Source of the DNA: an uncultured Clostridium sp.
Lineage (GTDB): Bacteria > Bacillota > Clostridia > TANB77 > CAG-508
Length of the DNA: 64,000 bases
Reading direction: 5' to 3'
NCBI GenBank assembly: GCA_946496575.1
Contig: CAMMHE010000001.1
Location: 42,511 to 106,510 of the forward strand
Below are positions 1,331 through 51,358 of this stretch, in pieces. Position 1 is the stretch's first letter, and every line of letters begins with the position of its first letter. A program made the position numbers and the translations under genes. The notes under the pieces were generated by a model. It saw nothing but the letters and a program-made list of their open reading frames with translations. It made no database searches and was not told the origin of the DNA.

Positions 1331-1425
1331 ATACTTCGTAGTAAGGGTTAAGAGAAGATAAAAAAGTTTATCAGAATGAAAACCCCCACATAAAGTGCTT
1401 AAACGCCGGAAGGAGGGGAATAATA

Positions 1426-1596: not shown

Positions 1597-1623
1597 TTAA
1601 ATAAAAAGGGTTTCGAATTTAAA

Positions 1624-1676
1624 GTGCACCTCAAATGTTATACAAAAAAGTTTAGCATTTGGAGGTGTATTTTTAG
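1624..1676 (+). terminator. rho-independent terminator after rpsU
   Basis: Hairpin GTGCACCTCAAATG...CATTTGGAGGTG followed by a T-run. Confidence 0.5.
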
Positions 1677-1765
1677 TATATAAATGATTTCATGATATTT
1701 TATTATTTGCAAAAATAATCTTATATGATATACTTATAAAAAATAAATTTAGTGAGGAACAAAAA

Positions 1766-2320
1766 ATGAAAGAAAGATTTTTGGAATTATTAAGATCAGT
1801 AAAAAGAGAAGGAATAGAAGAACTAATAAAATTTTTAGAAGTTTCAGACTTTTTTACAGCTCCTGCAAGCACAAAATTTCATGGAGATTATGAAGGAGGA
1901 TTATTAGAACATAGTTTAAAAGTTTATGAAATATTATGTGATAAAGTAAAACAATCACAAATAGAAATAAAAGTATCAGAAGATACGTTAAAAATAGTTG
2001 CATTATTACATGACATATGCAAAGTAAACTTTTATAAAATAGACTATAGGAATGCAAAAAATGCATTAGGAGTATGGGAAAAAGTACCATATTATACTGT
2101 AGAAGATACAATACCATATGGACATGGTGAAAAATCCGTAATGATGCTAACAGAATACATAAAGTTAACAGGAGAAGAAAAATATGCAATTAGATGGCAT
2201 ATGGGTTTTACAGAACCTAAAGAACTATATAATACATTAGGACAAGCAATGAAAAAATATCCATTAGTATTATTAATGAATGAAGCAGATTTAGAAGCAA
2301 CATATTTTTTTAACATATAG
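1766..2320 (+). CDS. HD-domain phosphohydrolase (YhaM C-terminal-like, COG3481-type)
   Basis: FHGDYEGGLLEHSL ... VALLHDICK metal-binding HD motifs; good RBS AGTGAGGAAC. Confidence 0.6.
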   Translation: MKERFLELLRSVKREGIEELIKFLEVSDFFTAPASTKFHGDYEGGLLEHSLKVYEILCDKVKQSQIEIKVSEDTLKIVALLHDICKVNFYKIDYRNAKNALGVWEKVPYYTVEDTIPYGHGEKSVMMLTEYIKLTGEEKYAIRWHMGFTEPKELYNTLGQAMKKYPLVLLMNEADLEATYFFNI

Positions 2321-2360
2321 GAATTTATAAAATAAGATAAAAAATAAAGGGAAAATTTAA

Positions 2361-4371: not shown

Positions 4372-4440
4372 ATAAATAATATAATTAGTATATCAAAGAA
4401 TTTAAGTTTTAAATCTTCCATTTAACTTAAGTTCTATTGC

Positions 4441-4465
4441 TTGACAATCAAAAACATGTTATAAT
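4441..4465 (+). promoter_or_regulatory. putative promoter for mfd (extended -10)
   Basis: TTGACA(4441) then TGtTATAAT(4457-4465); -35/-10 spacing is short (13 bp), so it relies on the extended -10. Confidence 0.3.
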
Positions 4466-4495
4466 AATTAATATTTTGATAAAAAGAGGAAAGAA

Positions 4496-7927: not shown

Positions 7928-7973
7928 TTTAAGTTAATTAATTGGATAGAATTAAAAAGGAGGCAAAAATATA

Positions 7974-8765
7974 ATGCAGTTAATAACTAGCAAAGATAAT
8001 GAAATAGTGAAGCAAATAAAAAAATTGGGTGAAAAAAAATATAGAGATGAAACAAATAGTTATATAATCGAAGGCCTAAAGCTTGTAGAAGAAGCAATTA
8101 AAGAAGGAGCTCAAATAGAAAAAATTATCATATGTGAAGAATCCACAAGAGCATCTGAAATTTCAAAAAATTTAATGTATGAAATAGCTAAATATGATTG
8201 TGTATATGTCACAGAAAAAATTTTTAAAACACTAACTCAAGTTATGAATCCGCAAGGTATAATGGCAGTAATAAAAAAGAATATAGAAAGACCTCATATA
8301 AAATATGATGAAGACATTATAGTTGCTTTAGATGATATACAAGATCCAGGGAATCTAGGAACGATTTTAAGAACTGTAGATAGTATAGGATTAAAACAAA
8401 TAATCGTATCTAAAGGAACAGCAGACATATATAATCCAAAAGTAGTTCGATCTAGTATGGGAGCTATATTCAGAGTTGAAGTAATTGAAAGTCAAAATTT
8501 ACAAGAAATGCTTGAAACAATTAAGAAAAATGGATATGAGATTTTAGTTACATCACTTGAAGCTAAAAAAAGTATATATGATATAAAATATAATAAAAAT
8601 ATTTTAGTAATTGGAAACGAAGCAAATGGTGTTTCAAAAGAAATACAAGATATAGCAAATAAAAAAATAAAAATTCCTATGTTAGGTAAAACAGAAAGTT
8701 TAAACGCATCAGTTGCAACAGGGATAATACTTTATGAATATGTAAGGCAAAAAATGCAAAAATAA
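7974..8765 (+). CDS. TrmH/SpoU-family RNA 2'-O-methyltransferase (RlmB-like)
   Basis: SPOUT signature: GNLGTILRT, GNEANGVS, ESLNASVATGI. Confidence 0.75.
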   Translation: MQLITSKDNEIVKQIKKLGEKKYRDETNSYIIEGLKLVEEAIKEGAQIEKIIICEESTRASEISKNLMYEIAKYDCVYVTEKIFKTLTQVMNPQGIMAVIKKNIERPHIKYDEDIIVALDDIQDPGNLGTILRTVDSIGLKQIIVSKGTADIYNPKVVRSSMGAIFRVEVIESQNLQEMLETIKKNGYEILVTSLEAKKSIYDIKYNKNILVIGNEANGVSKEIQDIANKKIKIPMLGKTESLNASVATGIILYEYVRQKMQK

Positions 8766-8793
8766 AATGAAATATAATTAAGAAGGGATAAAA

Positions 8794-9300
8794 ATGAAAT
8801 TAAATATAGTATTAGTAGAACCAGAAATACCACAAAATACTGGAAATATAGCAAGAACGTGTGCAGCATTAGGAGCTAAATTACATTTAGTTCATCCACT
8901 TGGTTTTAACATTTCAGATAAACAAGTAAAAAGAGCAGGATTAGATTATTGGGATAAATTAGAAATAGAAGAACATATAACATTAAATAAGTTTTTGGAA
9001 AAATATAAACCAGAAAAAGAAAATATGTTTTTTGTAACAACAAAAGGGAAGAAAGTATACGATGAAGTCAAATATTCTAACTTTAGTGAAGTATTTTTAT
9101 TATTTGGTAAAGAAACAAAGGGATTACCAGAAGATATATTGAAAAGATATATTAGTAAAACAATCCGAATACCAATGAGAGAAGCTATAAGATCATTAAA
9201 CTTATCAAATTCAGTGGCAATAATTGCATATGAAGTTTTTTCACAAAAGAATTTTGAAGGTTTGCAAGAAATAAGTAACTATTTTGCCGAAAATGTTTAA
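8794..9300 (+). CDS. trmL: tRNA (cytidine/uridine-2'-O)-methyltransferase TrmL-like (short SpoU family)
   Basis: 168 aa; VLVEPEIPQNTGNIARTCAALG N-terminus and SLNLSNSVAIIAYE C-terminal SPOUT knot motifs. Confidence 0.7.
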   Translation: MKLNIVLVEPEIPQNTGNIARTCAALGAKLHLVHPLGFNISDKQVKRAGLDYWDKLEIEEHITLNKFLEKYKPEKENMFFVTTKGKKVYDEVKYSNFSEVFLLFGKETKGLPEDILKRYISKTIRIPMREAIRSLNLSNSVAIIAYEVFSQKNFEGLQEISNYFAENV

Positions 9301-27888: not shown

Positions 27889-27995
27889 AATATTTCCTCC
27901 ATTCCTCTACTATATAATATAACATATAAACAACAATTATACAATAAATATTTTGTCGTTTTATAAAGAATAATGTAAAAATTTTTAATATAAAA

Positions 27996-28040
27996 ATAAA
28001 ACTGCTGTTAAAGTAAAAATACTTTTAATAGCAGTTTTTA
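27996..28040. terminator. terminator downstream of the peroxiredoxin 3' end (minus-strand gene)
   Basis: AACTGCTGTTAAAG...CTTTTAATAGCAGTT hairpin with flanking A/T runs. Confidence 0.45.
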
Positions 28041-28060
28041 TTAGCAATATTTTATAAGGA

Positions 28061-28504
28061 TTATTCTATTTTTTCACATTCTAATTTTACTTGATCTTTG
28101 CAATCTTGATCAGGATTTTTAAAACTTAAATACCAACTTAATCCATTTCTATTTTCATTTATATATTTAACTCTTTCTTGTAATTCAGGATATGTTTGTG
28201 GTGCTGGAACTATTACAGGTTGCCCAGGTATCCAATTTGCAGGAGTAGAACCACTACTACAATCTGCCATTTGAAGGCTCTGAACGATTCTAAGTATTTC
28301 AGGTATAAATCTACCAACATTTAAAGGATATACTAAAATTACTCTTATAATTCCTTTATCATCTATAATAAAAACATTCCTTACTGTTTTTGTAGTACTT
28401 ATATCGCTTGCTATCATTCCATATTTTCGTGCTATTTGCCCATTTCTATCAGCTATTATTGGAAATGGAATTTGTATGCCTGTTCTACAATAAATATCAT
28501 ACAT
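28061..28504 (-). pseudogene. peroxiredoxin (1-Cys Prx/AhpC-TSA family) C-terminal fragment, separated from its N-terminal part by the inserted element
   Basis: Fragment begins ...AWMYDI and carries the Prx C-terminal region (IPFPIIADRNGQIARKYGMI...); the in-frame upstream codons read SNASHLAW, identical to the end of the N-terminal fragment at 36599. Confidence 0.8.
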
Positions 28505-28506
28505 CC

Positions 28507-28528
28507 ATGCAAGATGTGAAGCGTTACT
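28507..28528. repeat. 22-bp direct repeat copy 1 (ATGCAAGATGTGAAGCGTTACT); att core / target duplication of the prx-inserted element
   Basis: Exact 22/22 match with 36601..36622; both lie inside the prx reading frame (encode SNASHLA on the minus strand). Confidence 0.75.
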
Positions 28529-28556
28529 TATTTTACCAATGTTACATTTTACTTTT

Positions 28557-30149
28557 TCAAGTATTAATTGATGTATTTACAAGATTCAACTCTGAAAAAT
28601 TAAAGTAAAGATAAATATTTTTATTTTCATCTAATTCCACTCTATCTATTAGTTCATATAGTATTTTTCTGCTTGGTTTCTCGAATTTCAAAAACTCATT
28701 TATTATATTTTCAATATCTTCATTACGTTTTGCACCTTTTTGCTTTTCATTAATTAATTTAATTTTGCTTTCAATACTTTTTTGTTCTTTTTTTAGCCTG
28801 TCTCTTTCTTCTATGAAGCCCCTTGAGTATCTAAAATAATCATCGTTGGATATAATTCCATCTAGATTGTCGAAATACATTTTATCTATTTTCTTTGATA
28901 TTTCTTCTACTTGTTTTTCAACATTTTTAAGATTGTATTCTTCTTTTTCAATTAAATTTTCATAATTATTCTGATATTTTTCATATATTATTTTTAAAGC
29001 ATTTTTGTCGCAATAAATTTGACAAATGTTTCTAATAGCATTTAATGTTTTTTCCTCAAATTTATTGTAATTATAATTACATGTTTTGCATTTGCGGTCT
29101 TTTCCTCTTGCTAGACTACAATCTATATAGCCTATTTTCTCTTTTTTTCCTCTATAACATACTCTTGATTGTCTGCCACAATTGTGACAAAACATAAGTC
29201 CTTTGAATAAAAAATCATGCTTTGTTGCTGACATGCTTTTTTTGCCTTTTATAATTTCTTGAACTTTTGAAAACAGTTCTTTTGAGATTATTGCTTCATG
29301 GGTGTTTTCTACTCTTATGTGCTCTTCTTCTTCCTTCTTTATCTTCTTTTTTACCTTATATGATACTGAAACACATTTATTTTGCACTGTGTTTCCTATA
29401 TATGCTTCATTTACTAATATTGATCTTATGCTTTTAGGATTCCATGTTTCTCTTTGATGCTTCATGTTTAAATATTGACTTGGTGGTTTAATTTTTTCTT
29501 TATCGAAGATAGTTGCTATTCTTTGAAATCCATTTCCTTCTGAATATAACTCAAAAATTCTTTTTACATTATATGCAACATTTGTGTCTATTTCTAATTT
29601 GTTTTTTTGCGTGCTACTTTTCTTATATCCATATGGTGCAATTGTTCCTAAATATTCTCCATTTAATTCTTTTTCTTTAAAAACTCCTTTGATTTTTTTA
29701 GATATATCTTTTGCGTACATATCATTTATTATAGCTTTAAATGGTGTTACATCATTGTTTGTACTATCTATAAATGTATCTATACCATCTAATATTGATA
29801 CATATCTAACTCTTTTTTCAAGGAAATAATTTTCTATGTAATATCCTGTTTTTATATAGTCTCTTCCTAGTCTTGATAAGTCTTTTGTTATTACCATATT
29901 GATTCTTTGCGTTTCTATGTCATTTATCATTCTTTGAAAATTTTTTCTTTCAAACGTTGTTCCTGATACTCCATCATCTATGTACTCATCTATAAAAATA
30001 AGGTTGTTTTCTTTTATGTATCTTTGTAATATGTTTCTTTGATTTGATACGCTTTCGCTTTCTAACTTGTCACCATCATCTCTGGATAAACGAATATAGA
30101 TTCCGACCTTAAAGGTGATATTAGATATATTTTGATTGCTAAAAAACAT
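28557..30149 (-). CDS. large serine recombinase (530 aa)
   Basis: Resolvase catalytic domain (VGIYIRLSRDDGD...SVSNQR...MVITKDLSRLGRDY), recombinase domain, zinc-ribbon CHNCG...C...CKTC and C-terminal coiled coil; stop is 28 bp from the element boundary. Confidence 0.9.
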   Translation of the reverse strand: MFFSNQNISNITFKVGIYIRLSRDDGDKLESESVSNQRNILQRYIKENNLIFIDEYIDDGVSGTTFERKNFQRMINDIETQRINMVITKDLSRLGRDYIKTGYYIENYFLEKRVRYVSILDGIDTFIDSTNNDVTPFKAIINDMYAKDISKKIKGVFKEKELNGEYLGTIAPYGYKKSSTQKNKLEIDTNVAYNVKRIFELYSEGNGFQRIATIFDKEKIKPPSQYLNMKHQRETWNPKSIRSILVNEAYIGNTVQNKCVSVSYKVKKKIKKEEEEHIRVENTHEAIISKELFSKVQEIIKGKKSMSATKHDFLFKGLMFCHNCGRQSRVCYRGKKEKIGYIDCSLARGKDRKCKTCNYNYNKFEEKTLNAIRNICQIYCDKNALKIIYEKYQNNYENLIEKEEYNLKNVEKQVEEISKKIDKMYFDNLDGIISNDDYFRYSRGFIEERDRLKKEQKSIESKIKLINEKQKGAKRNEDIENIINEFLKFEKPSRKILYELIDRVELDENKNIYLYFNFSELNLVNTSINT

Positions 30150-30204
30150 GTACTTTTACCTCCTATTTTCTAGCAATCACCTGCTAGTTCTATTTTTCTA
30201 TATT

Positions 30205-30333
30205 TATTCAAGTTTTTCTTTTGTTTCTAGTCTTTCTTTTAAATATTCTTTAAATGCATTTCCAAGTTTTTTGTTTATATCTTCCTTTTGGTTGCTAAAT
30301 ATGCAATATACTTTTTCTGTCTCATTTTCCATT
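30205..30333 (-). CDS. small hypothetical protein (42 aa) immediately upstream of the recombinase; candidate regulator or directionality factor
   Basis: ATG with strong RBS (AAAGGAGAAAGTC); MENETEKVYCIFSNQKEDINKKLGNAFKEYLKERLETKEKLE; no known domain. Confidence 0.3.
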
Positions 30334-30991
30334 TTGACTTTCTCCTTTATTGAATATTATTAAAGGTGTTTCAAAAAATAACTGTTTTTTAGAATATAAT
30401 AAAAAAGCCTTTAGGCTATGTACGTTTTATTGTTTGCATAGTTTTGGCTTTTTGTTTAGTTTAAAATTTGTTCACCACTTTTTTAGCATGGTGATTGATA
30501 TGGAAATTGAACATGATTTCCATATATTTCAAGATATAATTATTTTTTTATTTTAATTGCATTATATAGTCTACTTTTTAAAAGTCAATATTTAAAATGT
30601 ATTTTTGCAAAAGGCAGTTTTTTCGATTTTTGCAATTTTCTGTCTTTGTAATTTTTTCAAATCATAATACTTACACTATTCTAAATATAGCCATTCTCGG
30701 TTATGGATAGTAATAAAATATTCAATAAATTTTTATTCATTTTTTTACGTTTTTGGCATTATTTTATAGAAAAAATATATAGAATGAATCATTTTCGATT
30801 AATAAAATATATTTTAGAAAATTTATTTTCATATTTTTATCAAACTGATATATTAAATAAACTTCTTCAATTTTTGTATTTTTTATATATTCGTCTTTAT
30901 TTTTTCTTTTTAAAAATAAATCTTTATATCCATTAATTAAATATTCCTAATTCGCTTAATTTTGTGTCTAGTTTTTATTGACTATTCCACC

Positions 30992-31048
30992 CGCTTTAAC
31001 GAGTCAAAAAAATGTACAAACCGGATGCTTTTGATTATCTATTTATAT
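30992..31048 (+). repeat. ~57-bp imperfect direct repeat, copy 1 (partner at 36411..36467)
   Basis: CGCTTTAA(C/T)GAGTCAAAAAAATGT(A/G)C(A/C)AACCGGAT(G/A)CTT(T/A)TGATTATC(T/C)ATTT..., about 85% identity, same orientation. Confidence 0.5.
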
Positions 31049-31143
31049 ACTTTAATCTAAAATTTTGATATATGTATTTTATTTTTCTTTATTATATGAT
31101 ATATTCATATTACCTTATTTTGAGTACGAAAGGATGGTTTTAA

Positions 31144-31704
31144 TTGTTTGAATTATTTATTAAAGAATGTTATGATGAAGCAATCGAATTAAAAAAGCAA
31201 TTTGAAATTACAGAAGATAAAAAATGGTCAGCACTTACAATTACAAATGAACTTTTTGTTCAATTAGGTCATTACAGTTTTATTATATGTAACAATAAAT
31301 TTGTTGAAGAAAATGGAAGAATTATAAATAATCCTAAAGATGAATTATCTGATATTTTGCTTCAACTATGTGCATTGTGCGGAAAGCTTAATATCGATAA
31401 AAATCATCTTAAATCCTACAACTTTAGGGTAACTACTTTAAATGAAGCAGTTCTGCAATTAGTAACTTTAGTAGGTCAACTGACAGAATGCATAATGGAA
31501 CTTGAAGCATACAGGCATTCAAAAGAAAGACTTGGATATTCTACAAAAATAGAATTTATAATTGAAAGAATTAATAAATGTTTTTCAATTATTTTTAAAA
31601 TCGCAGAAAATCAAAATTATGATATGATTTTTGAATTTAATTTAATGAAAAAAAATTCATTAGAATTTTTAAAAAATTATAGTAAGGAAAAATATTATGT
31701 ATAA
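31144..31704 (+). CDS. hypothetical protein, possible MazG-like all-alpha NTP pyrophosphohydrolase (TTG start)
   Basis: ELSDILLQLCALCGKLNID resembles the MazG EExxE/D-L-GDxL helix motif; overlaps the next gene by 8 nt (operon). Confidence 0.3.
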   Translation: MFELFIKECYDEAIELKKQFEITEDKKWSALTITNELFVQLGHYSFIICNNKFVEENGRIINNPKDELSDILLQLCALCGKLNIDKNHLKSYNFRVTTLNEAVLQLVTLVGQLTECIMELEAYRHSKERLGYSTKIEFIIERINKCFSIIFKIAENQNYDMIFEFNLMKKNSLEFLKNYSKEKYYV

Positions 31705-32824
31705 TTACCCCATTATTGATCTTCATGCCACTTGGTTGGTTGTAAACCCTATACAGGGTTGCCCTAACAGATGTAAATATTGTTTTTTAAATGGAGTAGG
31801 ACTAACTGGTATAAAACCAATCGAATTATTGCAACCATATGAAACTATAAAGATGTTAAAAGAATCCAACCTATATAATCAACAAATACCTATATGCATT
31901 GAATCTCAATCTGATGCTTTTTCAACTCCGAAAAACATAGAATACGTAAAAGAGTTAATAGATATCATGCATAAGCAGCATATAATGAATACCAAAATAT
32001 TCATTACTAAATGTAAAATACCTAATAATTTTATTGACTACTTAAAAAAATATAGAGAAGCTGGACATAATTTTATATTTTTTTTAAGTTATTCTGGTTT
32101 GGATAATGATATAGAAATAGGTATTAACAAAAACAATATTAAAGATAATTTCATAAAATTAAAAGAAAATGGTTTTGATATCATACATTATTGGAGACCT
32201 TTTATACCTCAAAATTCATCTAAAGAAAGAATCATAGAAGTTATGAATTTTGTAAAGCAATATGCTAGATGCTCAATAGCAATTGGTTTAAAGGCTCAAA
32301 ATACTTTTATTGACAAGCTTGATTTTTGGGAAGATATAAAGAAATATCCTGAAGCACCTTATGCTGAAAGTATTTGGACAAAAGAAGCATACGAATATAT
32401 ATATGGTGCAAATCCAATATTAAATGACGATTATCCAATATTTCAATCTACTTCTTGTGCAATTGCTTATGTAAAAAAAGAATGCGATAGAAATGCTTTT
32501 TATGGCTCTAATATTTGTATGAATTACAATAAGTGCCCTGAATCTCAACGAAAAATTTGCAATAATTATTATATCTACACCAATAAAAACATTTCAGAAG
32601 AAACAATAAAAAAACTGCTAGATAATCTTCATTTAGATATCAGAACTGTAAAAATAACTATAAATTATGAGTTAAGGCAAATATGCTTAGAAGGCATAGA
32701 ACTTGGAATGAAGCATTTTACCTATTTAACACAGTTAACTAGATTTAAAATACTTGCCAAGAAAATCAATGGAGATTATTATTGGAATACTTCTGTGAAT
32801 AATGCTAAACAATTGCATATTTGA
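31697..32824 (+). CDS. radical SAM protein, SplB/'DNA repair photolyase'-like family (COG1533-type)
   Basis: [14 protein letters not shown] = CxxxCxxC [4Fe-4S] motif in the N-P-x-x-G-C context of the SPL family; additional C-terminal Cys cluster. Confidence 0.55.
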
Positions 32825-32834
32825 GGAGGTAGTA

Positions 32835-33677
32835 ATGATAAAAAAAGCAGTCATCCCAATTGCTGGCTATGGGACAAGAATGTTGCCAGCTACAATATCT
32901 ATTCCTAAGACAATGCTTAACGTTGTTGATAAACCTATTATAGAATACATTATAGATGAAGTAATCAATGCTCGGAATAACAGAAATTTTATTAATAACA
33001 AATTTAGGATCTTCAATTATTGAAAATCATTTTGCACGAAGTTTTGAACTTGAAAATTTTCTTAAAGAAAAAAATGATATAGAAACATTTGAAAAGATAA
33101 AAAATCGTTATAGTAATGTTAATATTTATATAAAAAAGCTTCTTCAAACTTAAGTTTAGCTGAAAGCGTTTATGATGCAAAGGGTTTTGTTGATGGTGAG
33201 CCATTTTTATTAGTTCTAGGTGATGAAATATTAGGAAATAATGCTTCATGTTCTAAGACACTAGTAGAAAAATACAATGAATTAAAATGTCCAATATTAG
33301 CTGTTAAAAAAATTGGCAGAAGTGATATAAAAAATTATGGCATTGTAGAAAGTAAGCAATACAAGGATAATTTAATGATAATTGAAAAGTTAATAGAAAA
33401 ACCTTCGAAAAATGAGACAAATTCTAATTTGGCAATTATTGGTAGATATGTACTTAATGCTTCTATATTTAGTGAAATTGAGATGTTACAAACTCCTGAT
33501 TTTACTAAAGCAATGCATAATTTAAAAGAACTAAAATTTGCACTATCTATTGATGGAGAAAGATTCGATTGTGGTTCAAAGCTCGGATTAGTAAAGGCCA
33601 ATATATCAATGGCTTTAAAAAATCCAGAAATATCACAAGAATTAAAGAATTATTTAAAAGAATTATTAGAACAGTGA
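32835..33677 (+). pseudogene. UTP--glucose-1-phosphate uridylyltransferase (GalU)-like nucleotidyltransferase with two compensating frameshifts (~32973 and ~33135)
   Basis: [20 protein letters not shown]...VDKP(frame 0) / [33 protein letters not shown](frame +1) / GFVDGEPFLLVLGDEI...LAIIGRYVL...GERFDCGSKLG(frame 0) all align to GalU. Confidence 0.7.
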
Positions 33678-33688
33678 GGAGAAAAATT

Positions 33689-34168
33689 ATGGATGTTTCA
33701 GTGATAATTAATAATACAAAATTTAATTATAGAGTAGCTACTCTGATAAAGAATGATGACAAACTTTTATTGCATAAAAGTAAAGAAGATGATTTTTATG
33801 CAATCCCTGGTGGGAGAATTATGATAGGTGAAAACTCCGAAAATGCATTGAAAAGAGAGCTTCAAGAAGAAATAGGAGCAAAAATAAATATAAAAGACTA
33901 TTTAGGAACAGTAGAAAATTTCTTTGAGTACAATGAAAAAAAATACCATGAAGTCATGATTGTTTATGAGTCTACTTTTGATAGCAATTCAGATTTTTAT
34001 GAAAAAGAAAAAATAATAGGATTAGAAGAAAATGGAAAAATAGAATTTGTTTGGAAAACAATTGACGAAATCAAAAAATTGGATTTACGTCCCCTATTTT
34101 TAAAAGAAAGTATTATCTCAAATACAAAAATAAATCATTTAATAAATAATGCCATTAAACAGCTATAA
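33689..34168 (+). CDS. Nudix hydrolase (159 aa; start at internal ATG with RBS GTGAGGAG)
   Basis: Nudix box GGRIMIGENSENALKRELQEEIG. Confidence 0.75.
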   Translation: MDVSVIINNTKFNYRVATLIKNDDKLLLHKSKEDDFYAIPGGRIMIGENSENALKRELQEEIGAKINIKDYLGTVENFFEYNEKKYHEVMIVYESTFDSNSDFYEKEKIIGLEENGKIEFVWKTIDEIKKLDLRPLFLKESIISNTKINHLINNAIKQL

Positions 34169-34201
34169 AAAAGTTCTCTACGATAATCGTAGAGAACTTT
34201 T

Positions 34202-35035
34202 TTATTCGCTGTAAGTACGCAGAATTTCACTAATCACGTTAATTTTCAGAATTTTAAAAATATTTAGTACATTCGGTTGTGTATTAACATCTGATATTAA
34301 CGGAAGCTCTGCTTTTTGATATAGCATGTCTATTCCTGCAAATGTAATTCCTAATGTTCTACAGCATTTAATTGCTTTTTGTTCATCATCATAAGATAAG
34401 GAACACCTTTCATACCTATACGAACCATCTTTCATAGTAATCCGTTTGAAGCTTGACAAAACTTTGTGTTGAGTAGCAAAAACTTTAATTTCTATACTAG
34501 GCGAAAGAGTTAAGTACTCTTGCAATGCTATTCGCTCATTCATTGGTCTAGTCAGAAGAAATTCATTAAGCATATTCATATCTTTTAATACAAAAACATT
34601 GTTTTCTAAAGCACTATCTTCTAATTTTGCTACTATTGGAAATCCAATTTTTTTTGCAATTATATCTTGAAAACGTAAAGCCATTTTTACATTTGTCACT
34701 ATTGTATTTGGAATTAATCTTTCCTTTTTCAAACACTTATACGTTTCAAGCTTATTTTCACAAATAATTGCAGAAATTGGATTATTATATACCTTGATTC
34801 CAAGACTTTGGATTTGCTTAGCTAATTCCCAAGACTTATCCCAAAATAAAACGCAATCTGGCACGAATTGTATCCCGGAAAAGTAATAATCAAAATCACT
34901 TTTTAGTTTGGAAGCAGGTACTTTTACGCATAAAATATTCTCATCGCAGAATGTTTTAAAAATGAATTCTACAATTCGAAAGTATTCTTCAGAAGTAGAA
35001 GCATCATTATAAACAATCCACCATTTCTTTTTCAT
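34202..35035 (-). CDS. ATP-grasp enzyme (RimK/glutathione-synthetase-like ligase); start at MKKKWW (35035)
   Basis: ATP-grasp core (…KIGFPIVAKLEDSALENNVFVL…ALQEYL…IKVFATQHKV…AGIDML); start is coupled to the stop of the upstream gene (TAAAATG). Confidence 0.6.
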   Translation of the reverse strand: MKKKWWIVYNDASTSEEYFRIVEFIFKTFCDENILCVKVPASKLKSDFDYYFSGIQFVPDCVLFWDKSWELAKQIQSLGIKVYNNPISAIICENKLETYKCLKKERLIPNTIVTNVKMALRFQDIIAKKIGFPIVAKLEDSALENNVFVLKDMNMLNEFLLTRPMNERIALQEYLTLSPSIEIKVFATQHKVLSSFKRITMKDGSYRYERCSLSYDDEQKAIKCCRTLGITFAGIDMLYQKAELPLISDVNTQPNVLNIFKILKINVISEILRTYSE

Positions 35036-35036
35036 T

Positions 35037-36131
35037 TTATCCCTCCAATAGCTGTTTAGTTTTGGTGTAAAGTTCTTCATCATGAATATCTTTACCAAAT
35101 CTGACAAGATATACAAGTACAGAAGAAACTATTTTTTCAATAGACCTACTCGCCTCTCTTTCAAGTTCGTAATCGCTTGTATGTCTAGGGTATATCCAAG
35201 GCTTTCTAAGCGATTCATAATCAATTGGTGTAAAGCATGTTTCATGCATTAATTTTATAGCGTCTTTATTAGATAGTAACCGACTTTCAAAACAAAGAGA
35301 TCTTTCAAAATCGATTTTTGAAAATATTACCATATCCAGTGTTGAAGTTTGTTGAAATGTTGTATCCGGAAAGAAAGTTGGAACATCTGCCAACGGAATT
35401 GGAAAGCTTGTTCTACCTTCTTTAAAAGATTTAGGTAAATGATATTTCCCACTAGCAAGTACATGTTTTTTTAAAAATGCATTATTTTCAATGCTCCCCA
35501 ACTTATAAACTACTGGGATTGGAAAATAGTCCATTTTAGCAGCTCCATTCAAGTACAGGAAAGTGCGATCATTACTAATAATAGATGACTTACCTGCCGA
35601 AAGAAGTTTTGAAAAATATGTAGTTTTTCCGGAACCCTCATTTCCTAAAATGCATATTCCATGTCCATCGGTAACTAAAGATGTGCCATGCATAAATAAC
35701 TTTCCGCTATTTTCTTCTAATCGTACAATAATTTCACGAATCAAACGAAAAACATATTTAGTTGTATTACGGATACCATCCCCAATCACAATGTAATGCT
35801 GGTTTGAAAGTTTCCGAACAATGTACTTGTCTGGAAGTTGCATATAACATTCTTCTGAATCAACAAGTGCTTCCATGTGATATTCATTCTCAAAAGTGCA
35901 AATAATTCTTGTGTTCGAGGATTCAATCAACTTTTTATATTTCAAAAACATTCTTTGTTCTTCAATATATTCAATAAGAATTTGATTGTCATTATCACAA
36001 TCCTCAAAACTAGGTTCAGAATAGCAAAACTTTGCAATATGGTTAATTTGATTTTGAAGAAGATCCAAATAGTCAGTAGAAATTACAAATACATTTCCTA
36101 GGATTAAATAGGAAACTCTATACTTACTCAT
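35037..36131 (-). CDS. HPr-kinase-related P-loop kinase-like protein (364 aa)
   Basis: LFMHGTSLVTDGHGICILGNEGSGKTTYFSKLL matches the HprK/P C-terminal domain P-loop; RBS AAGGAGG. Confidence 0.5.
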   Translation of the reverse strand: MSKYRVSYLILGNVFVISTDYLDLLQNQINHIAKFCYSEPSFEDCDNDNQILIEYIEEQRMFLKYKKLIESSNTRIICTFENEYHMEALVDSEECYMQLPDKYIVRKLSNQHYIVIGDGIRNTTKYVFRLIREIIVRLEENSGKLFMHGTSLVTDGHGICILGNEGSGKTTYFSKLLSAGKSSIISNDRTFLYLNGAAKMDYFPIPVVYKLGSIENNAFLKKHVLASGKYHLPKSFKEGRTSFPIPLADVPTFFPDTTFQQTSTLDMVIFSKIDFERSLCFESRLLSNKDAIKLMHETCFTPIDYESLRKPWIYPRHTSDYELEREASRSIEKIVSSVLVYLVRFGKDIHDEELYTKTKQLLEG

Positions 36132-36205
36132 AAATATTCCTCCTTAAATTAAGTATGGTTTTTATAGGTAAACTGCTCTTGGCAGTAAATAAAATTTACA
36201 TATAT

Positions 36206-36233
36206 ATTATATACGAATTATGTAAATTGTCAA
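36206..36233 (-). promoter_or_regulatory. sigma-A promoter for the HprK-like/ATP-grasp operon
   Basis: On the minus strand: TTGACA-16-TATAAT, ~70 nt upstream of the 36131 start. Confidence 0.4.
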
Positions 36234-36410
36234 TTTTTTACAACTCTTTTCTTCCTTTCATTTTTACCTTTTCTTACCGCTTTTTATCATTTGACCATAC
36301 ACCCTTTTTTTCACTCTCCACTCCTTACCTATATCGTATCTTTTAAACTAGATACACTCTTATTCCTTCAAACTCTTTATTCCCAATAATTTAAGTCTTA
36401 CATAAATATA

Positions 36411-36467
36411 CGCTTTAATGAGTCAAAAAAATGTGCCAACCGGATACTTATGATTATCCATTTCTAT
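36411..36467 (+). repeat. ~57-bp imperfect direct repeat, copy 2
   Basis: See copy 1 at 30992..31048. Confidence 0.5.
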
Positions 36468-36595
36468 GGTATTTTGTTTTCACTTCTGATAAGAAAAAAA
36501 TCGCTCCAGATTTATTTCTAAATCTAAAGCAATTTTATTTTTTTATTTATATATTTTATTTTCACAGGTGATTGCTTATTTTATGTTGGTAAAAT

Positions 36596-36859
36596 TTACA
36601 ATGCAAGATGTGAAGCGTTACTATCTATACTAAGACCTAATAATTCTGTATTAAGTTTTTGAAAATATGTATTAGCTTTGGAAAATGCTATAAATTCTGT
36701 CGTACATACGGGGGTAAAATCTCCAGGATGCGAAAAAAATACTAACCATTTTCCTCTATAATCTTGTAATTTAATATTTCCATATGTAGTTTCAGCTTCA
36801 AAATCAGGTGCAATTTGACCTATTTTTACATTTCCATTCATCATTAATTCATAGTCCAT
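36596..36859 (-). pseudogene. peroxiredoxin N-terminal fragment (87 aa, peroxidatic Cys region)
   Basis: [24 protein letters not shown]...[15 protein letters not shown]...[13 protein letters not shown] then premature stop; RBS GAAGGGAGAG; the 229-aa ORF-track entry is an artefactual upstream extension. Confidence 0.8.
36601..36622. repeat. 22-bp direct repeat copy 2 (ATGCAAGATGTGAAGCGTTACT)
   Basis: Exact match to 28507..28528. Confidence 0.75.
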
Positions 36860-37038
36860 AAATACTCTCCCTTCATATTTTTTATATATTATGAATAATA
36901 ATTTTATAATGTTACCATATAAACTAAAGTAAAAAATAAAAAACATTTTTAAAAATAAATTAAAAAAATATAGCAATACAAATACAAATATGATATAATG
37001 CAAACGAATGGAAAAGTAAGATATGTGGAGGTGAAAGT

Positions 37039-37179
37039 ATGAATAAATATAAATGTAGTATATGTGGATACATATATGATGAGGAGGCAGAAGGAGTAAA
37101 ATTTGAAGATTTACCAGATACTTGGGTATGCCCACTTTGTGGAGTAGGGAAGGAAATGTTTGAAAAGGTAGAAGAGTAA
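37039..37179 (+). CDS. rubredoxin (46 aa)
   Basis: Two CxxCG knuckles: CSICGYIYD...[10 protein letters not shown]. Confidence 0.8.
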
Positions 37180-37203: not shown

Positions 37204-37743
37204 ATGGAATTAAAAGGATCAAAAACAGAAAAAAATTTAATGGAAGCATTTGCAGGAGAATCACAAGCAAGAAATAAATATACATATTTTGCTAGCAAAG
37301 CAAAAAAAGAAGGATATGAGCAAATAGCAGCTTTATTTCAAGAAACAGCTGATAATGAAAAAGAACACGCAAAATTATGGTTTAAATTACTACATGGAGG
37401 AGATGTTCCATCAACAGTAGAAAACTTAAAAGAAGCAGCTGAAGGAGAAAACTATGAATGGACAGATATGTATGAAAGAATGGCTAAAGAAGCTAGAGAA
37501 GAAGGATTTGATAAGATTGCATATCTATTTGAAGGAGTTGCAAAAATAGAAAAAGAACATGAAGCAAGATATCTAAAACTATTAGATAATGTAGAAAACG
37601 GATTAGTATTTTCAAAAGATGGAGACACAATTTGGAAATGCAGAAACTGTGGACATATTGTAATAGGAAAATCAGCACCAGAGGTATGTCCTGTTTGCAA
37701 TCATTCACAAGCATATTTTGAAGTAAAAGCTGAAAATTATTAA
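37204..37743 (+). CDS. rbr: rubrerythrin
   Basis: Ferritin-like diiron domain ([16 protein letters not shown]...EKEH...) plus C-terminal rubredoxin-like CRNCGH...CPVC. Confidence 0.85.
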
Positions 37744-42472: not shown

Positions 42473-42549
<77 letters not shown>

Positions 42550-42556
42550 AAATATA

Positions 42557-42606
42557 AACCTCTGAAGTACTGAAAAATCAGTATTCACAGAGGTTTTTCT
42601 TTTTTA
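42557..42606 (+). terminator. terminator after tRNA-Arg
   Basis: AACCTCTG...CAGAGGTT hairpin followed by TTTTCTTTTTT. Confidence 0.45.
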
Positions 42607-42635
42607 ATTAATGCAATAACCATGCAATAGATTTT

Positions 42636-42866
42636 TTAAATTCCATTTTGTTTCATATAAATATTATATTTTTCATTTTCGTCTTTATTAAATTTTTCAA
42701 AAACACTTGTATATGTATCTAATGTTGTTTGTATTTTTCTATGTCCTAATATTTGTTGTAAAACTTTAGTAGACATTCCTGCTTCTATACATCTAGTAGC
42801 ATAAGTATGCTTTAGCATGTGAGAAGGAATAACGCTAATAGCACTAGTAATAACAATTTTATTCTC
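42636..42866 (-). pseudogene. tyrosine recombinase/phage integrase C-terminal remnant (~75 aa) next to tRNA-Arg
   Basis: …[40 protein letters not shown]: HxxR and catalytic Tyr region of the integrase family; upstream in-frame stop truncates everything N-terminal. Confidence 0.6.
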
Positions 42867-42904
42867 TTATGACGAAAAATTAAAATGTAGTAATAGCAAA
42901 GGTT

Positions 42905-43621
42905 TCCTCCTTACAACAATTTAGTAAAAATAAAATTCCTGCATATTTAAAGGTAAAAGACGAAAATGAAAGAATTTGGTATATAAATGAAACTATTAAG
43001 AATGGCTGGGCAAGAAGTGTTTTGATTCATCAAATTGAATATGGTCTATATGATAGAGCATCAAAGGAAGAAAAAACACATAATTTTCCAAAAACATTGC
43101 CACAAGTTCAATCAGAGCTAGCAGTACAAACTCTAAAAGATCCATATATATTTGACTTTTTAACTTTATCAAAACAATATAAAGAAAAAGATTTAGAGGA
43201 TCAATTACTCAATTTTTATTGGAATTAGGTGCTGAATTTGCATTTGTGGGTAGGCAATATCATTTAGAGATTGGCGGAGATGATTATTATATAGATTTAT
43301 TGTTTTATCATTTGAAATTAAAATGTTATGTTGTTATTGAGTTAAAAACAGTAGAATTTCAACCAGAATTTGCTCGGGAAACTAAATTTTTATTTGTCAG
43401 CTGTAGATGATATATTAAAGACAAAGGAAGATAATCCATCTATTGGTATTTTATTATGCAAGGAAAAAAATAAAGTAAAAGCAGAATATGCATTAAAAGA
43501 TATAAATAAACCAATAGGAATTTCAAAATATGAATTGATTAAAGCAATACCAGAAGATTTAAAGTCTAATTTGCCAACTGTTGAAGAAATTGAGAGCGAA
43601 ATGGAAGAAAAATTGAAATAA
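42905..43621 (+). pseudogene. DUF1016/YhcG-family PD-(D/E)XK nuclease, N-terminally truncated with two frameshifts (~43215, ~43375)
   Basis: …NGWARSVLIHQIEYGLY…KDPYIFDFL… / LGAEFAFVGRQYHLEIGGDDYYIDLLFYHLKLKCYVVIELK / NFYLSAVDDIL…NPSIGILLCK in three frames. Confidence 0.6.
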
Positions 43622-47639: not shown

Positions 47640-48240
47640 TGTTATACTAAATATCGATGGTACATTATTCTAGTCATACTTACTATTATGAGGGTGGGGC
47701 TAAAAATCCACTAAAGGGCATATCGATGAAGTTTCTTGCTTACGCGCGAAATGCCAGTTTTGTGTGTATTCAGGAAGTAAGAACTACGGATAATATATAA
47801 TGGCATATATGTGATTCCGTATTTCGTGGAGGCTTAAGTAAAATTTAACTTAAGAAGAACCTATGGTGAGTGCCAAGACACGATATACATAGTGTAGCCT
47901 GCCTTGAGTGAAAATACTGGGATTAATTAATAGGTTTAAAATAAATATGGGCCCATATTTATTTTAAATAGAATTATGAAATTATTTTTGCAAAAGAGGA
48001 TAGTAATAGTTAAAAGTATGTTTGGGAAAACCTCTAGAATGTTTGCTCAATTTAGAGCATAGAAATTTAAGGATTAAGGTACGGATTTAAGTGGTGATCT
48101 AGTGGCTATCAAAAGATAGATATTTTCTTTAAATGGAAACGGCTTTGCAGTGATGTAAAGTAGAAAATAGAGAAATTCTACTAGACCTAAACCGTAAAAT
48201 TTACTTAAATTTTGACCATCTATTTTTAGTTTTTATTTAG
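47640..48240 (+). ncRNA. ole: candidate OLE (ornate large extremophilic) RNA, ~600 nt
   Basis: A 600-bp non-coding tract, conspicuously more GC-rich and non-repetitive than flanking intergenic DNA, directly upstream of a 4-TM DxxxD protein that resembles OapA; identity inferred from this arrangement, not verified by alignment. Confidence 0.4.
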
Positions 48241-48258: not shown

Positions 48259-48816
48259 ATGAAGATAAAAAAGGAAAGAAGTAAAAAATCAAATTCCAAT
48301 CTGAAATGGTATATAGAAGTTATAATTAGTACTTTTATATTATCCATTTTATTTTCATATATATCATCAAATGGGGTTTCAAATTTACCCATAATACCAG
48401 CAATATTAATTTTAGCTATAGTAATATTAATAGGAATAATAGCTGATATGATAGGTGTATCAGTAACAGTTGCAAAAGAGCAAGAATTTCATGCAAAAGC
48501 AACAAAAAAAGTAGAAGGCTCAAAAACATCTATAAGCTTAATTAAAAATGCATCAAGGGTTGCAAATATTTGTTCAGATGTAATAGGAGATATATGTGGA
48601 GTATTAAGTGGAGCAGTAGGAACTTTAATATCATTAAAAATTACTGAAAATATGGGAATATCAGAAAATATACAATATGTAGTAAGTGCCTTAATAGCAT
48701 CAGTAATGGTCGGAGGAAAAGCTGTTGGAAAAGAGATTGGAATAGCAAAAGATACAGAGATCGTACATGCAGTTGGAATAATAATAAATAAATTTAAGAA
48801 AAAGAAATATAAGTGA
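48259..48816 (+). CDS. oapA: small 4-TM membrane protein, OapA-like (OLE-associated protein A)
   Basis: 185 aa, four predicted TM helices, internally duplicated halves with DMIG and DVIGD (DxxxD) motifs; adjacent to the candidate OLE RNA. Confidence 0.45.
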   Translation: MKIKKERSKKSNSNLKWYIEVIISTFILSILFSYISSNGVSNLPIIPAILILAIVILIGIIADMIGVSVTVAKEQEFHAKATKKVEGSKTSISLIKNASRVANICSDVIGDICGVLSGAVGTLISLKITENMGISENIQYVVSALIASVMVGGKAVGKEIGIAKDTEIVHAVGIIINKFKKKKYK

Positions 48817-49333: not shown

Positions 49334-51358
49334 GTGGAGGAGAATATGGCAGATAAATTAATAATAGTAGAATCACCAGCAAAAGCAAACACAATAAAAA
49401 AGTTTTTAGGAGGTAATACAAAGGTAGTAGCCTCAATGGGACATATAAGAGATCTACCAAAATCAAAACTGGGGATAAACATAGAAAATAACTTTGAACC
49501 AGAATATATAAATATTAGGGGAAAAGGGGATTTAATTAAATCCTTAAAAAAAGAAGCAAAAGCAGCTAAAAAAGTATATCTAGCAACTGACCCAGACCGC
49601 GAAGGGGAAGCTATAGCATGGCATTTAGCACATATATTAGATATAAAAAACACAGAGGGAACAAGAGTTACATTTAATGAAATAACAAAAACTGCTGTTC
49701 AGAAAGCAATAAAAGAGCCAAGGGATATAGACAAAAATCTAGTAGATGCACAACAAGCCAGAAGGGTTTTAGATAGGATAGTAGGTTATAAAATAAGCCC
49801 AGTTTTATGGAAAAAGGTACAAAAAGGACTTTCAGCAGGAAGAGTTCAATCTGTTGCAGTAAAATTAATAGTTGATAGAGAAAAAGAAATTGAGAATTTT
49901 ATACCACAGGAATATTGGAATATATTTGCAACATTACAAGATGAGAAAAGTAAAAAAACATTTGAGGCAAAATTTTTTGGAAAAAATGGAAAAAAGCAAG
50001 AGCTTCATTCAAAAGAAGAAGTAGATTTAATACTAAAAGAAGTGGAAAAATCTAAATTTATTATAAATGAGATAAAAAGAGGTGAAAAAAAGAGAACACC
50101 AGCACCTCCTTTCACAACGAGTACAATGCAGCAAGAAGCATCAAGAAAGTTAGGATTTACATTAAAAAAGACAATGTCAATAGCTCAAAGTTTATATGAA
50201 GGAATACATATTCCTGAAAAAGGAACAATTGGTTTAATTACATATATGAGAACAGATTCTACAAGAATTTCGGAAGAAGCTAGAGTAACAGCTAAAAAAC
50301 ATATAGTAGAAACATATGGTGAAAAATATTATGAAAATAGATATTATAAAACAAATAAAGAATCACAAGATGCACATGAAGGAATTAGGCCAACATATTC
50401 TGATTTAGAACCAGAATCAATAAAAGATAGTTTAACAAAAGATCAATACAAATTGTATAAATTAATATACAATAGATTTATGGCAAGTCAAATGGCATCA
50501 GCAATATATGATACTATGTCAATAAATATAAAAGCAAATAATTATGATTTTAAAGCTAATGGTCAATCTTTAAAATTTAAAGGGTTCATGGCATTGTATG
50601 TAGAAGGAACTGATGGAAAAGAAGAAACCGAACAGGCTATATTACCTAATTTGGAAGAGAAACAAGAAGTAAATAAGCAAAAATTAGAACCAAAGCAAAG
50701 TTTTACAGAGCCACCACCAAGGTATACAGAAGCAAGTTTAGTAAAAGCTTTAGAAGAAAAAGGAATTGGAAGACCAAGTACATACTCACCTACAATAACA
50801 ACAATATTAGAAAGAAGATATATTGAAAAAGAGCAAAAACAATTAAAACCTACAGAATTAGGTAAAATTGTAAACAAATTATTAGTAGAAAATTTTGGAG
50901 ATATTGTAAATGTAGAATTTACAGCAAATATAGAAAATAAATTTGATGGAATTGCAGAAGGAAAACAACAATGGAAAAAAATAATAGAAGACTTTTATGG
51001 CCCATTTGAACAAGAGGTAGAGAAAGTTGAAAAAGAACTTGAACATGTTGTAATTGAACCAGAAGTATCAGATGTACAATGTGAATTATGTGGAAGAATG
51101 ATGGTTTATAAATATGGAAGATATGGAAAATTTTTAGCATGTCCAGGATATCCAGAGTGCAAAAATACAAAACCTATTATACAAACAATAGATATTTTAT
51201 GTCCAAAATGTGGAGGAAAAATACAAGTTCGAAAAACTAAAAGAAAAAGAAATTATTATATTTGCGAGAATAATCCAAAATCTTGCGATTATATTTCTTG
51301 GAACAAACCAGGAGAAGAAAAAAAGCCCAAAAAGCAAGAAAAAAAGGAAAAAAAATAA
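49334..51358 (+). CDS. topA: DNA topoisomerase I
   Basis: Toprim N-terminus (LIIVESPAKANTIKKFLG...), catalytic Tyr region, two C-terminal Zn ribbons (CELCGRMM...CPGYPEC; CPKCGG...C). Confidence 0.9.
   Translation: MEENMADKLIIVESPAKANTIKKFLGGNTKVVASMGHIRDLPKSKLGINIENNFEPEYINIRGKGDLIKSLKKEAKAAKKVYLATDPDREGEAIAWHLAHILDIKNTEGTRVTFNEITKTAVQKAIKEPRDIDKNLVDAQQARRVLDRIVGYKISPVLWKKVQKGLSAGRVQSVAVKLIVDREKEIENFIPQEYWNIFATLQDEKSKKTFEAKFFGKNGKKQELHSKEEVDLILKEVEKSKFIINEIKRGEKKRTPAPPFTTSTMQQEASRKLGFTLKKTMSIAQSLYEGIHIPEKGTIGLITYMRTDSTRISEEARVTAKKHIVETYGEKYYENRYYKTNKESQDAHEGIRPTYSDLEPESIKDSLTKDQYKLYKLIYNRFMASQMASAIYDTMSINIKANNYDFKANGQSLKFKGFMALYVEGTDGKEETEQAILPNLEEKQEVNKQKLEPKQSFTEPPPRYTEASLVKALEEKGIGRPSTYSPTITTILERRYIEKEQKQLKPTELGKIVNKLLVENFGDIVNVEFTANIENKFDGIAEGKQQWKKIIEDFYGPFEQEVEKVEKELEHVVIEPEVSDVQCELCGRMMVYKYGRYGKFLACPGYPECKNTKPIIQTIDILCPKCGGKIQVRKTKRKRNYYICENNPKSCDYISWNKPGEEKKPKKQEKKEKK

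Follow-up and report, generated by a model that had tools for sequence, protein, structure and literature searches.

How does the gene for an antioxidant enzyme come to lie in two pieces, 8 kb apart, in the genome of an uncultured Clostridium, and is its division of any use to the host? The question is posed by a stretch of 64,000 nucleotides (contig CAMMHE010000001.1, positions 42,511 to 106,510; lineage TANB77, CAG-508), referred to here as the window, in which the peroxiredoxin gene prx is interrupted by an 8,094-bp insert that encodes a large serine recombinase (LSR). We conclude firmly that this insert is a non-phage LSR cassette belonging to a prx-specific clade of such elements. The interruption of prx is, at a probability that we put at roughly 55%, collateral to the cassette's choice of site and tolerated by the host, with the cassette persisting as a carrier of accessory cargo. 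This reading is ranked first because the cargo is accessory and variable, because the neighboring rubredoxin and rubrerythrin genes are intact, and because no excision product is visible. Host-regulated reconstitution of prx is possible but unproven. The initial annotation had put forward both uses, conditional rebuilding of prx and tolerance of its loss.

When 28529..36622 is removed in silico (8,094 bp, one copy of a flanking repeat plus the intervening DNA), the two parts of prx (Table 1) join into a single in-frame open reading frame (ORF) of 705 nt and 234 codons, as the initial annotation had proposed. The rejoined protein matches Pfam AhpC-TSA (5e-36) and 1-cysPrx_C (4e-08), and its residues 12-215 align to peroxiredoxins of solved structure (best match 5ovq, 2e-65), the junction falling opposite DSNFSHIAWV. 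An AhpC/TSA fold, a PxxxTxxC motif with Cys52 and a 1-cysPrx_C domain together identify the product as a Prx6-type peroxiredoxin. The insertion point lies within the codon of His84 (residue 84 of 234), where it splits the AhpC-TSA domain and parts Cys52 from the remaining fold by 8 kb; in the gene call of L087, an independently sampled copy of the locus, the C-terminal part carries AhpC-TSA and 1-cysPrx_C and the N-terminal part is an 87-aa AhpC-TSA protein. The element contains no prx-like sequence, and thus no replacement segment for the interrupted domain. In the split state prx should be inactive.

The insert is flanked, inside the coding sequence, by an exact 22-bp direct repeat, ATGCAAGATGTGAAGCGTTACT on the plus strand, at 28507-28528 and 36601-36622, in agreement with the boundaries first described. 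It is the longest exact direct repeat of the 64-kb window. The maximum repeat in 50 Markov-1 simulated sequences ranged from 16 to 21 bp (median 18), and a match of 22 bp that exceeds every simulated maximum, coupled with exact restoration of the frame, argues against a chance repeat. For an assembly chimera there speaks only the general risk attached to metagenome-derived sequence, and against it the agreement of independent assemblies at 99.98-100% identity (L087, 99.98% across 15 kb; L088, 100% across 11.6 kb). The junction of the recombinase with the C-terminal part of prx recurs in three further samples, and the recombinase in five independent samples; in all it is present on 9 contigs. 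Because the locus is reproduced in independent samples and the frame is restored exactly, we exclude an artefact, and chimera and chance alike are scarcely credible.

The stop codon of the 530-aa recombinase lies 28 bp inside the left boundary, as had been noticed from the sequence. A YIRLSRDD motif near the N-terminus belongs to its catalytic domain with the nucleophilic serine, and the protein is full length, with 100% coverage against its relatives; its Zn_ribbon_recom match is marginal (25.1 bits against a cut-off of 25.3 bits). Among named recombinases the protein comes closest to TndX (identity about 36%, covering 93% of the length) and TnpX (catalytic domain, 2.8e-23); NCBIfam matches are weak, the best being CcrB/CcrC, far below cut-off, with XisF also weak. 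The recombinase matches the PHROG 95 'integrase' family as well (3e-97), and LSRs are common as phage integrases, which would suit a phiC31-type prophage or its remnant. Capsid, tail, terminase, lysis and repressor genes are, however, absent from the element; no phage structural, conjugation or relaxase domain was found in any element ORF with Pfam, NCBIfam, PADLOC or PHROGs; and the other PHROG matches are limited to a NUDIX protein and, weakly, an ATP-grasp protein (E 0.004) and a small ORF (E 0.006). At 8.1 kb the element is too small for a phage, and the nearest LSRs are at most 40% identical in viral contigs and at most about 33% in phage records. The prophage explanation is excluded on these three grounds, the missing phage genes, the lack of a close viral LSR and the size, and is very improbable indeed.

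Directly upstream of the recombinase is a 42-aa ORF for which profile searches gave no family match apart from the marginal PHROG one. Homologues of it, 42-51 aa in the clade, precede the recombinase in 10 of the 11 other elements checked; in the remaining one, L203, the small ORF was not found upstream of the recombinase. One of these 10 is a homologous 36-aa ORF upstream of the more distant LSR of L201 (53% identical), which is not at prx. Because of this homologue, the module of small ORF and LSR appears to be older than prx specificity. We regard the small ORF as a candidate accessory or directionality factor.

A scan at one genome per species returned 489 relatives of prx, and the best 80 of these (73-83% identical), which were inspected, are all uninterrupted, with no LSR within 10 kb. 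Among these best 80 of 489 there is no locus with two prx fragments and no element between them, an arrangement that would have spoken for a gene divided by other means. The hosts of the intact relatives are uncultured gut Clostridia, including 'Clostridium sp. CAG:389', 'CAG:575' and one with a 1.55-Mb chromosome. In the closest relative, L001, the gene order is rpoC, VanW-like (-), prx (+), rubrerythrin, DUF1540, FBP aldolase.

Relatives of the recombinase tell the complementary story. Four are 88-90% identical to it, and about 60 protein clusters are 65-81% identical. Ten distinct LSRs with readable context, 69-100% identical to that of the window, all abut prx at the same position (window, P0001/L083, P0002/L081, P0014/L082, P0017/L084-86, P0023/L195-197, P0024/L198-200, P0032/L203, L099 and L100/L101). 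The recombinase of the next cluster, that of L201 (5816-7623), instead adjoins an asparagine synthase gene. Because all readable members abut prx and the 53%-identical L201 recombinase does not, the LSR clade above about 65% identity is prx-specific, with its cargo freely exchanged.

The exchange is visible in the contents of the elements. In L081 and L083 (recombinase 89-90% identical) the recombinase is followed by an MNT/HepT pair and then by the C-terminal prx part, with Abi_2 upstream; in L084-86 (74%) it stands directly before the C-terminal part, with a PemK toxin upstream. L195-197 (76%) hold a complete 3.1-kb element, in which the N-terminal part of prx, a 345-aa membrane protein, the small ORF, the recombinase and the C-terminal part follow one another; the L195-type recombinase occurs on 11 contigs. 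Larger cargoes are found in L203 (69%; more than 17 kb, with flavodoxin-like, CMD, Abi_2, RecD2-like and KAP NTPase genes) and in L198-200 (74%; more than 10 kb, with QueC, QueD, QueE, FolE-like, transferases, an MFS transporter and an Erm-like methyltransferase). In L082, L099 and L100/L101 (73-76%) the recombinase faces an inverted N-terminal fragment of prx. In the L198 element (1-9200) we also observed a glycosyltransferase, methyltransferases and a carbamoyltransferase, the Erm-like protein being an rRNA adenine methyltransferase; this gene content suggests a 7-deazapurine product or modification with self-resistance.

Further rearrangements were seen at prx itself. L082 carries another LSR (1853-3595) that is unrelated to the first (35% identity) and adjoins prx near codons 46-48, just ahead of the codons for the FTPVC active site. 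A piece of prx of residues 48-95 lies between the two recombinases; prx may thus hold a second attachment site. Orphan N-terminal fragments of prx are present in L008 (629-781, residues 1-51) and L011 (2-130, residues 3-45), 7-10 kb upstream of an intact prx, with the housekeeping genes pheS and pheT between fragment and intact gene in L008. These may be scars of past rearrangements.

Comparison of the junctions (Table 1) allows the attachment (att) sites to be outlined. In the alignment of the clade, the recombinase-proximal half-site reads TTGGTAAAA(T/A)-N7-GC(T/A)TCA. It is followed by CA and T(T/C)T(A/T)GC... (prx codons 84 onward) in five alignable co-oriented elements, and by TG and TGA(A/C)GGATTACT... 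(prx codons 83 and below, reverse-complemented) in four inverted ones; CA or TG tracks the orientation of the element in 9 of 9 aligned junctions. The attP of L195, for which both junctions are available, is TTGGTAAAATGAGAATGGCTTCA-CA-TGAAGCGTATCTAATTTTACCAA, a near-perfect palindrome centered on CA. In the attP reconstructed for the window (about 48 bp), the 10-bp outer arms pair, their spacing is that of L195, and the geometric center falls on the same CA. We infer that the crossover dinucleotide lies at 28515-28516 and 36609-36610 (TG on the plus strand, CA on the prx strand), where CA forms the first two bases of the His84 codon. The attP of an LSR typically spans some 40-50 bp, its inverted arms imperfectly matched around a non-palindromic central dinucleotide, and recombines with a shorter attB; the comparison yields sites of this kind. 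In serine integrases such as Bxb1 and phiC31, polarity is set by the central dinucleotide alone. SprA likewise depends on its central dinucleotide (PMC5499854), and the two orientations seen in the clade are what a change from CA to TG in a quasi-palindromic attP would produce.

A mechanism can be proposed from these sites. A recombinase dimer would bind the quasi-palindromic attP of about 48 bp, TTGGTAAAAT-N7-GCTTCA-CA-N6-N7-ATTTTACCAA, and a second dimer would bind attB within prx, ...GATAGTAAYGCTTCA-CA-TYTWGCATGG.... Both sites would be cut with a 2-nt stagger at CA, and the half-sites would rotate and be religated, with CA versus TG as the sole determinant of polarity. The reverse reaction between attL and attR would rebuild prx exactly and release a circle; the predicted restored attB contains TAGTATAGATAGTAACGCTTCACATCTTGCATGGATGTATGAT and the predicted attP of the circle TTGGTAAAATAAGTAACGCTTCACATCTTGCATTGTAAATTTTACCAA. 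Excision would probably need an accessory factor, for which the conserved small ORF is the candidate. Loss of prx would be tolerated because the neighboring rubredoxin and rubrerythrin remain intact. The choice of this site is not explained by nucleotide conservation, since the 40-nt attB segment ranks 305 of 621 in average conservation (0.843, against a mean of 0.837 for the prx gene).

The 22-bp identity had been thought odd for a serine recombinase, a view that the comparison does not bear out. The junctions of L195 have only about 3 bp in common. Because these minimal junctions share so little, long identity is not a property of the clade, and the 22 bp are peculiar to the window element. 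There, the P arm matches host B over the 12 nt that precede CA, and the P' arm matches host B' over the 8 nt that follow it. The likeness on the left, AG(T/C)AA(T/C)GCTTCA, is partly found in L081 and L083 too; on the right, TCTTGCAT stands where relatives have palindromic TGAAGC. Chance, conversion between junctions or selection may each have produced the identity, and we favor none of them. Because the junctions of SPbeta share a 16-bp core (PMC5499854), a 22-bp core is long but not different in kind.

No decay is seen in the split prx. The window copy has no stops or frameshifts and alters 1 of 113 near-invariant residues, where intact genes alter 0.85 on average and at most 5 (leave-one-out); the same lack of decay is seen in the prx fragments of L081, L084 and L198 and in rejoined L195. 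Against the intact set, identity averages 0.753 for the window, 0.743 for the intact sister L001 and 0.774 for L195, within the intact range of 0.719-0.797, in a comparison biased by the picking of that set for its likeness to the window protein. A collection of 5.8 billion protein clusters holds no intact Prx more than 84% identical to that of the window, and none more than 88% identical to that of L195. Searches for an empty site in the same species returned nothing by exact-protein look-up of the window rubrerythrin, and by look-up of DUF1540 only contigs of about 1-5.7 kb that end short of prx. The attP junction has no exact match in viral contigs. In both the window species and the L195 species only the occupied state has been sampled, and the split looks fixed in these two species.

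These observations leave room for a cassette that has been put to use. The LSR and the small ORF, as directionality factor, might form a domesticated switch that excises when the cell meets oxidative stress or some other particular condition, at a stage of development or in part of the population, and so rebuilds Prx. A published survey of regulated gene integrity asks that one tight integrase clade supply several independent elements disrupting the same Pfam domain at one position, and that uninterrupted versions exist (PMC7192596); the ten elements at one position of prx and the uninterrupted alleles conform to this pattern. The apparently fixed split in two species, the lack of decay in either split gene with no acceleration of rate against outgroups, the likeness of the minimal 3.1-kb element (one cargo gene, small ORF and LSR) to reduced intervening elements, and the conserved small ORF that accompanies the recombinases all point the same way. 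Against this, no excision product is found in any assembly, and recent insertion explains the lack of decay equally well, the rate test being biased in any case by outgroups chosen for similarity to the window protein. Neither a conserved upstream region of small ORF and recombinase nor an operator is shared between elements (the only alignable pairs are window-L081 and L083-L195), and the highly variable accessory cargo suggests selfish or cargo-driven elements. Nor is prx differentiation-specific. No sporulation-specific genes are among the window ORFs scanned, and no statement on sporulation was found in the literature on TANB77. Regulated gene integrity is thus a serious but distinctly less probable account, to be held tentatively, and its more particular form is doubtful, in which a gut anaerobe of reduced genome would control an antioxidant enzyme by a DNA switch that excises stochastically or on a trigger of oxygen or peroxide, with the small protein as a new kind of directionality factor.

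At the other extreme, the cassette might be an immobilized relic of a single insertion, no longer excising and inherited vertically in a host that tolerates the loss of prx. Only the occupied state is seen for the window species, a GalU-like pseudogene and an Abi_2 remnant show the element to be decaying in places, a later inversion of the block suggests some age, and the P' inner half-site is unlike that of relatives. Yet a full-length recombinase and an intact small ORF with a ribosome-binding site are present, both junctions retain the outer arms of the clade and the GCTTCA-CA core, and the prx halves are undecayed; a relic is unlikely. The preferred reading, of a tolerated and collateral interruption, has points of its own to answer. 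The crossover position is inferred from symmetry and comparison across elements, and the P' inner hexamer of the window, TCTTGC, departs from the palindromic TGAAGC of relatives. Current mobility of the window copy is unproven, because no circular form, attP junction or restored attB of the window species was found in assemblies or protein clusters and no intact Prx above 84% identity exists there. An undecayed gene with a seemingly fixed split fits selection for a reconstitutable gene at least as well.

Several known systems resemble the locus in part. The elements Tn4451 and Tn5397, whose recombinases TnpX and TndX are the nearest named ones, are likewise small, clostridial and non-phage, and move as circular intermediates by the action of an LSR. 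TnpX and TndX act on GA-centered sites with loose specificity and no separate directionality factor, and their elements carry mobilization or conjugation functions. The window clade differs in its strict prx specificity and its CA center, and no mob, relaxase, conjugation or oriT-related genes were found among the element ORFs with Pfam and NCBIfam. SCCmec (CcrAB/CcrC) is also an LSR cassette whose cargo is interchangeable; it lacks transfer genes and occupies a single fixed site in the chromosome. Insertion of SCC at the 3' end of rlmH leaves that gene active, whereas the window cassette cuts prx through its catalytic domain.

Closer in architecture are elements that split genes. The gin element in gerE of Bacillus cereus ATCC 10987 is a non-prophage intervening element within a coding region, with a short shared boundary sequence (9 bp) and an element-encoded recombinase, and its excision needs GirC and GirX (PMC5595907). 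The target of gin, however, is a sporulation regulator, and experiments have demonstrated that the element excises midway through sporulation; the window element interrupts an antioxidant enzyme and no excision is seen, the cargo of the clade is large and variable, and an accessory role for the small ORF is conjectural. Like the window, SPbeta in spsM (SprA/SprB) and skin in sigK (SpoIVCA) show a gene split by an LSR element, a symmetric attP around a central dinucleotide, precise deletion that rebuilds the ORF and, for SPbeta, a long shared core (16 bp against 22 bp), though in the prx-specific clade the long core belongs to the window element and not to the clade at large (PMC5499854, PMC4191935, PMC5025042). 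They are prophages or prophage-like, with mother-cell target genes and known, sporulation-controlled directionality factors, whereas the window element is non-phage and its directionality factor a candidate. The initial annotation had compared the locus with skin, SPbeta and phiC31-type prophages; the LSR-bounded split and the deletion that restores Prx bear out the first two, and PHROG searches and viral contigs rule out the third. Even so, the likeness to skin and SPbeta is architectural only, as prx is not a sporulation gene. A model for a condition-dependent switch outside sporulation is the A118-like prophage in comK of Listeria, which inactivates the gene and by reversible excision reactivates it ('active lysogeny'), as shown in macrophages (PMC7397523); that element is a full prophage with demonstrated excision, and the window element has no phage genes.

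Table 1. Coordinates of the split prx gene, the junctions and the contents of the inserted element within the window.
Feature	Position	Strand	Remarks
prx, C-terminal part	28061..28528	-	Codons 84-234 to stop; annotatable as 147-aa ORF with internal ATG at 28504
Recombinase-proximal junction (P arm - CA - B' arm)	28483..28553	-	Holds repeat copy 1; outer arm TTGGTAAAAT
Large serine recombinase, 530 aa	28557..30149	-	Pfam Resolvase 1.6e-20 (residues 17-165), Recombinase 1.7e-23, Zn_ribbon_recom 2.4e-05
42-aa ORF	30204..30332	-	Begins MENETEKVYCIFSNQ...; directly upstream of recombinase; ribosome-binding site aaaggag
Sigma-70-like promoter, TTGACT-16-TATAAT	30561..30588	-	11/12 consensus; upstream of small ORF and recombinase; consensus match only
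Abi_2 gene remnant	30789..30952	-	78% nucleotide match to interior of L081 Abi_2 gene
Cargo-bracketing direct repeat, copy 1	30992..31048	+	53-57 nt; copies 88-89% identical
Cargo: 186-aa protein	31144..31704	+	Function not assigned
Cargo: radical SAM protein, 375 aa	31697..32824	+	Pfam Radical_SAM 1.5e-07
Cargo: GalU-like nucleotidyltransferase pseudogene	32802..33677	+	At least 3 ORF pieces
Cargo: NUDIX hydrolase	33689..34168	+	Pfam NUDIX 5.6e-13; PADLOC candidate PDC-S07 2.6e-12; start from L087 gene call
Perfect 20-bp palindrome	34165..34205	.	Between convergent cargo operons; possible bidirectional terminator
Cargo: RimK-family ATP-grasp ligase	34202..35035	-	Pfam RimK 6.4e-17; TIGR00768 4.8e-21
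Cargo: 364-aa P-loop protein	35037..36131	-	Weakly like HprK-related kinase B (TIGR04355 1.5e-07, below cut-off); weak precomputed ScmC match
Sigma-70 promoter, TTGACA-16-TATAAT	36206..36233	-	Perfect consensus; for kinase-like/ATP-grasp operon
Cargo-bracketing direct repeat, copy 2	36411..36467	+	Same 53-57-nt repeat
Terminator-like hairpin	36497..36536	-	Just inside element, downstream of truncated prx 5' part
Recombinase-distal junction (B arm - CA - P' arm)	36576..36646	-	Holds repeat copy 2; outer arm ATTTTACCAA
prx, N-terminal part	36596..36859	-	Codons 1-84, with peroxidatic Cys52 (PVCTTE); reads into element as ...SHLAL*
Rubredoxin	37039-37179		46 aa; beside N-terminal prx fragment; position mapped from L087 gene call
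Rubrerythrin	37204-37743		Beside N-terminal prx fragment; intact, as is rubredoxin

The cargo of the window element is laid out as two convergent operons, one of the 364-aa P-loop and ATP-grasp genes on the minus strand and one of the 186-aa, radical SAM, GalU-like and NUDIX genes on the plus strand. The breaks in the GalU-like gene are identical in the independent samples L087 and L088. For the 186-aa protein there is no Pfam, NCBIfam, PADLOC, PHROG or PDB match; PDB sequence searches were empty for the 364-aa protein as well, and single-sequence AlphaFold models of the two were unusable (pLDDT 50 and 33, respectively). A PADLOC scan of the cargo for defense systems matched solely the NUDIX protein, to the candidate in Table 1. 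The GC content of the insert (26.8%) is close to that of the host (27.1%), Rfam found nothing credible among RNA elements in the insert, and promoter-like sites across the whole region are no commoner than chance. The Abi_2 remnant marks descent from an L081-like backbone. The 53-57-nt repeat encloses exactly the cargo block, from this remnant to the distal att arm, and is absent from every other fetched locus; it may mark a nested cassette or a site of cargo exchange.

Relative to the flanks, the block of prx and element is inverted as a unit (27991..36944): blastn aligns the flanks collinearly with those of L001 and L081, and the prx parts in reverse. This inversion, like the existence of a clade with variable cargo and both orientations, had escaped the initial annotation. 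The inverted block takes in about 70 bp past the prx stop and about 50-85 bp upstream of the prx start, and no convincing inverted repeats were found at its breakpoints. The initial annotation was correct in placing prx beside rubredoxin and rubrerythrin, both found next to the N-terminal fragment; in L001 and L081 prx is co-directional with them, and in the window divergent.

Elsewhere in the window, a match to OLE (ornate large extremophilic) RNA lies at 47641-48235 (+; 344.8 bits), followed by a 185-aa ORF (48259-48816) without a Pfam match; OLE RNAs have been reported from reduced-genome gut Clostridia (PMC11332333), which the match fits. The region of 40.6-44.0 kb has almost no long ORFs. 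Within it, at 42473-43621, a tRNA-Arg(TCT) is followed by fragmented ORFs and by what remains of a tyrosine integrase, a C-terminal stump (42636-42818, -), in what looks like a decayed tRNA-linked island. A topoisomerase occupies two overlapping ORFs at 2361-4371 (Toprim 2361-3005, Topoisom_bac 2974-4371) and is probably frameshifted; an intact topA is present at 49334-51358.

Because gene-splitting serine-recombinase elements are well known, the element itself is unsurprising; serine integrases that disrupt domains are common, at 117 of 465 in the survey of regulated gene integrity (PMC7192596). What is new is the target gene. The initial annotation knew of no element with this target, and in the literature searched there is likewise no paper naming peroxiredoxin as a target of serine integrases; in the same survey the sole mention is a tree label for an intergenic site, 'AhpC-TSA|MarR_2' (PMC7192596). 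In a large group of uncultured gut Clostridia, prx thus appears to be targeted by LSRs repeatedly and with high specificity, which has not been reported before, and by published criteria it is a new candidate for regulated gene integrity.

The clade provides a natural example of the polarity rule of the central dinucleotide, with one site occupied in both orientations by CA versus TG. Its LSR, taken with the attP (about 48 bp) and the attB conserved in the chromosome, could become an integration tool for organisms that at present lack genetics. Given the variable cargo, prx is also a place to seek accessory or defense genes, among them Abi, MNT/HepT, PemK, KAP NTPase and a 7-deazapurine set, and in the window an uncharacterized radical-SAM/NUDIX/ATP-grasp/kinase-like set. 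If the cassette were indeed a DNA switch, regulated gene integrity would extend from genes of sporulation, heterocysts and virulence to the defense against oxidative stress, and it would be explained why the split is fixed and yet undecayed in at least two species.

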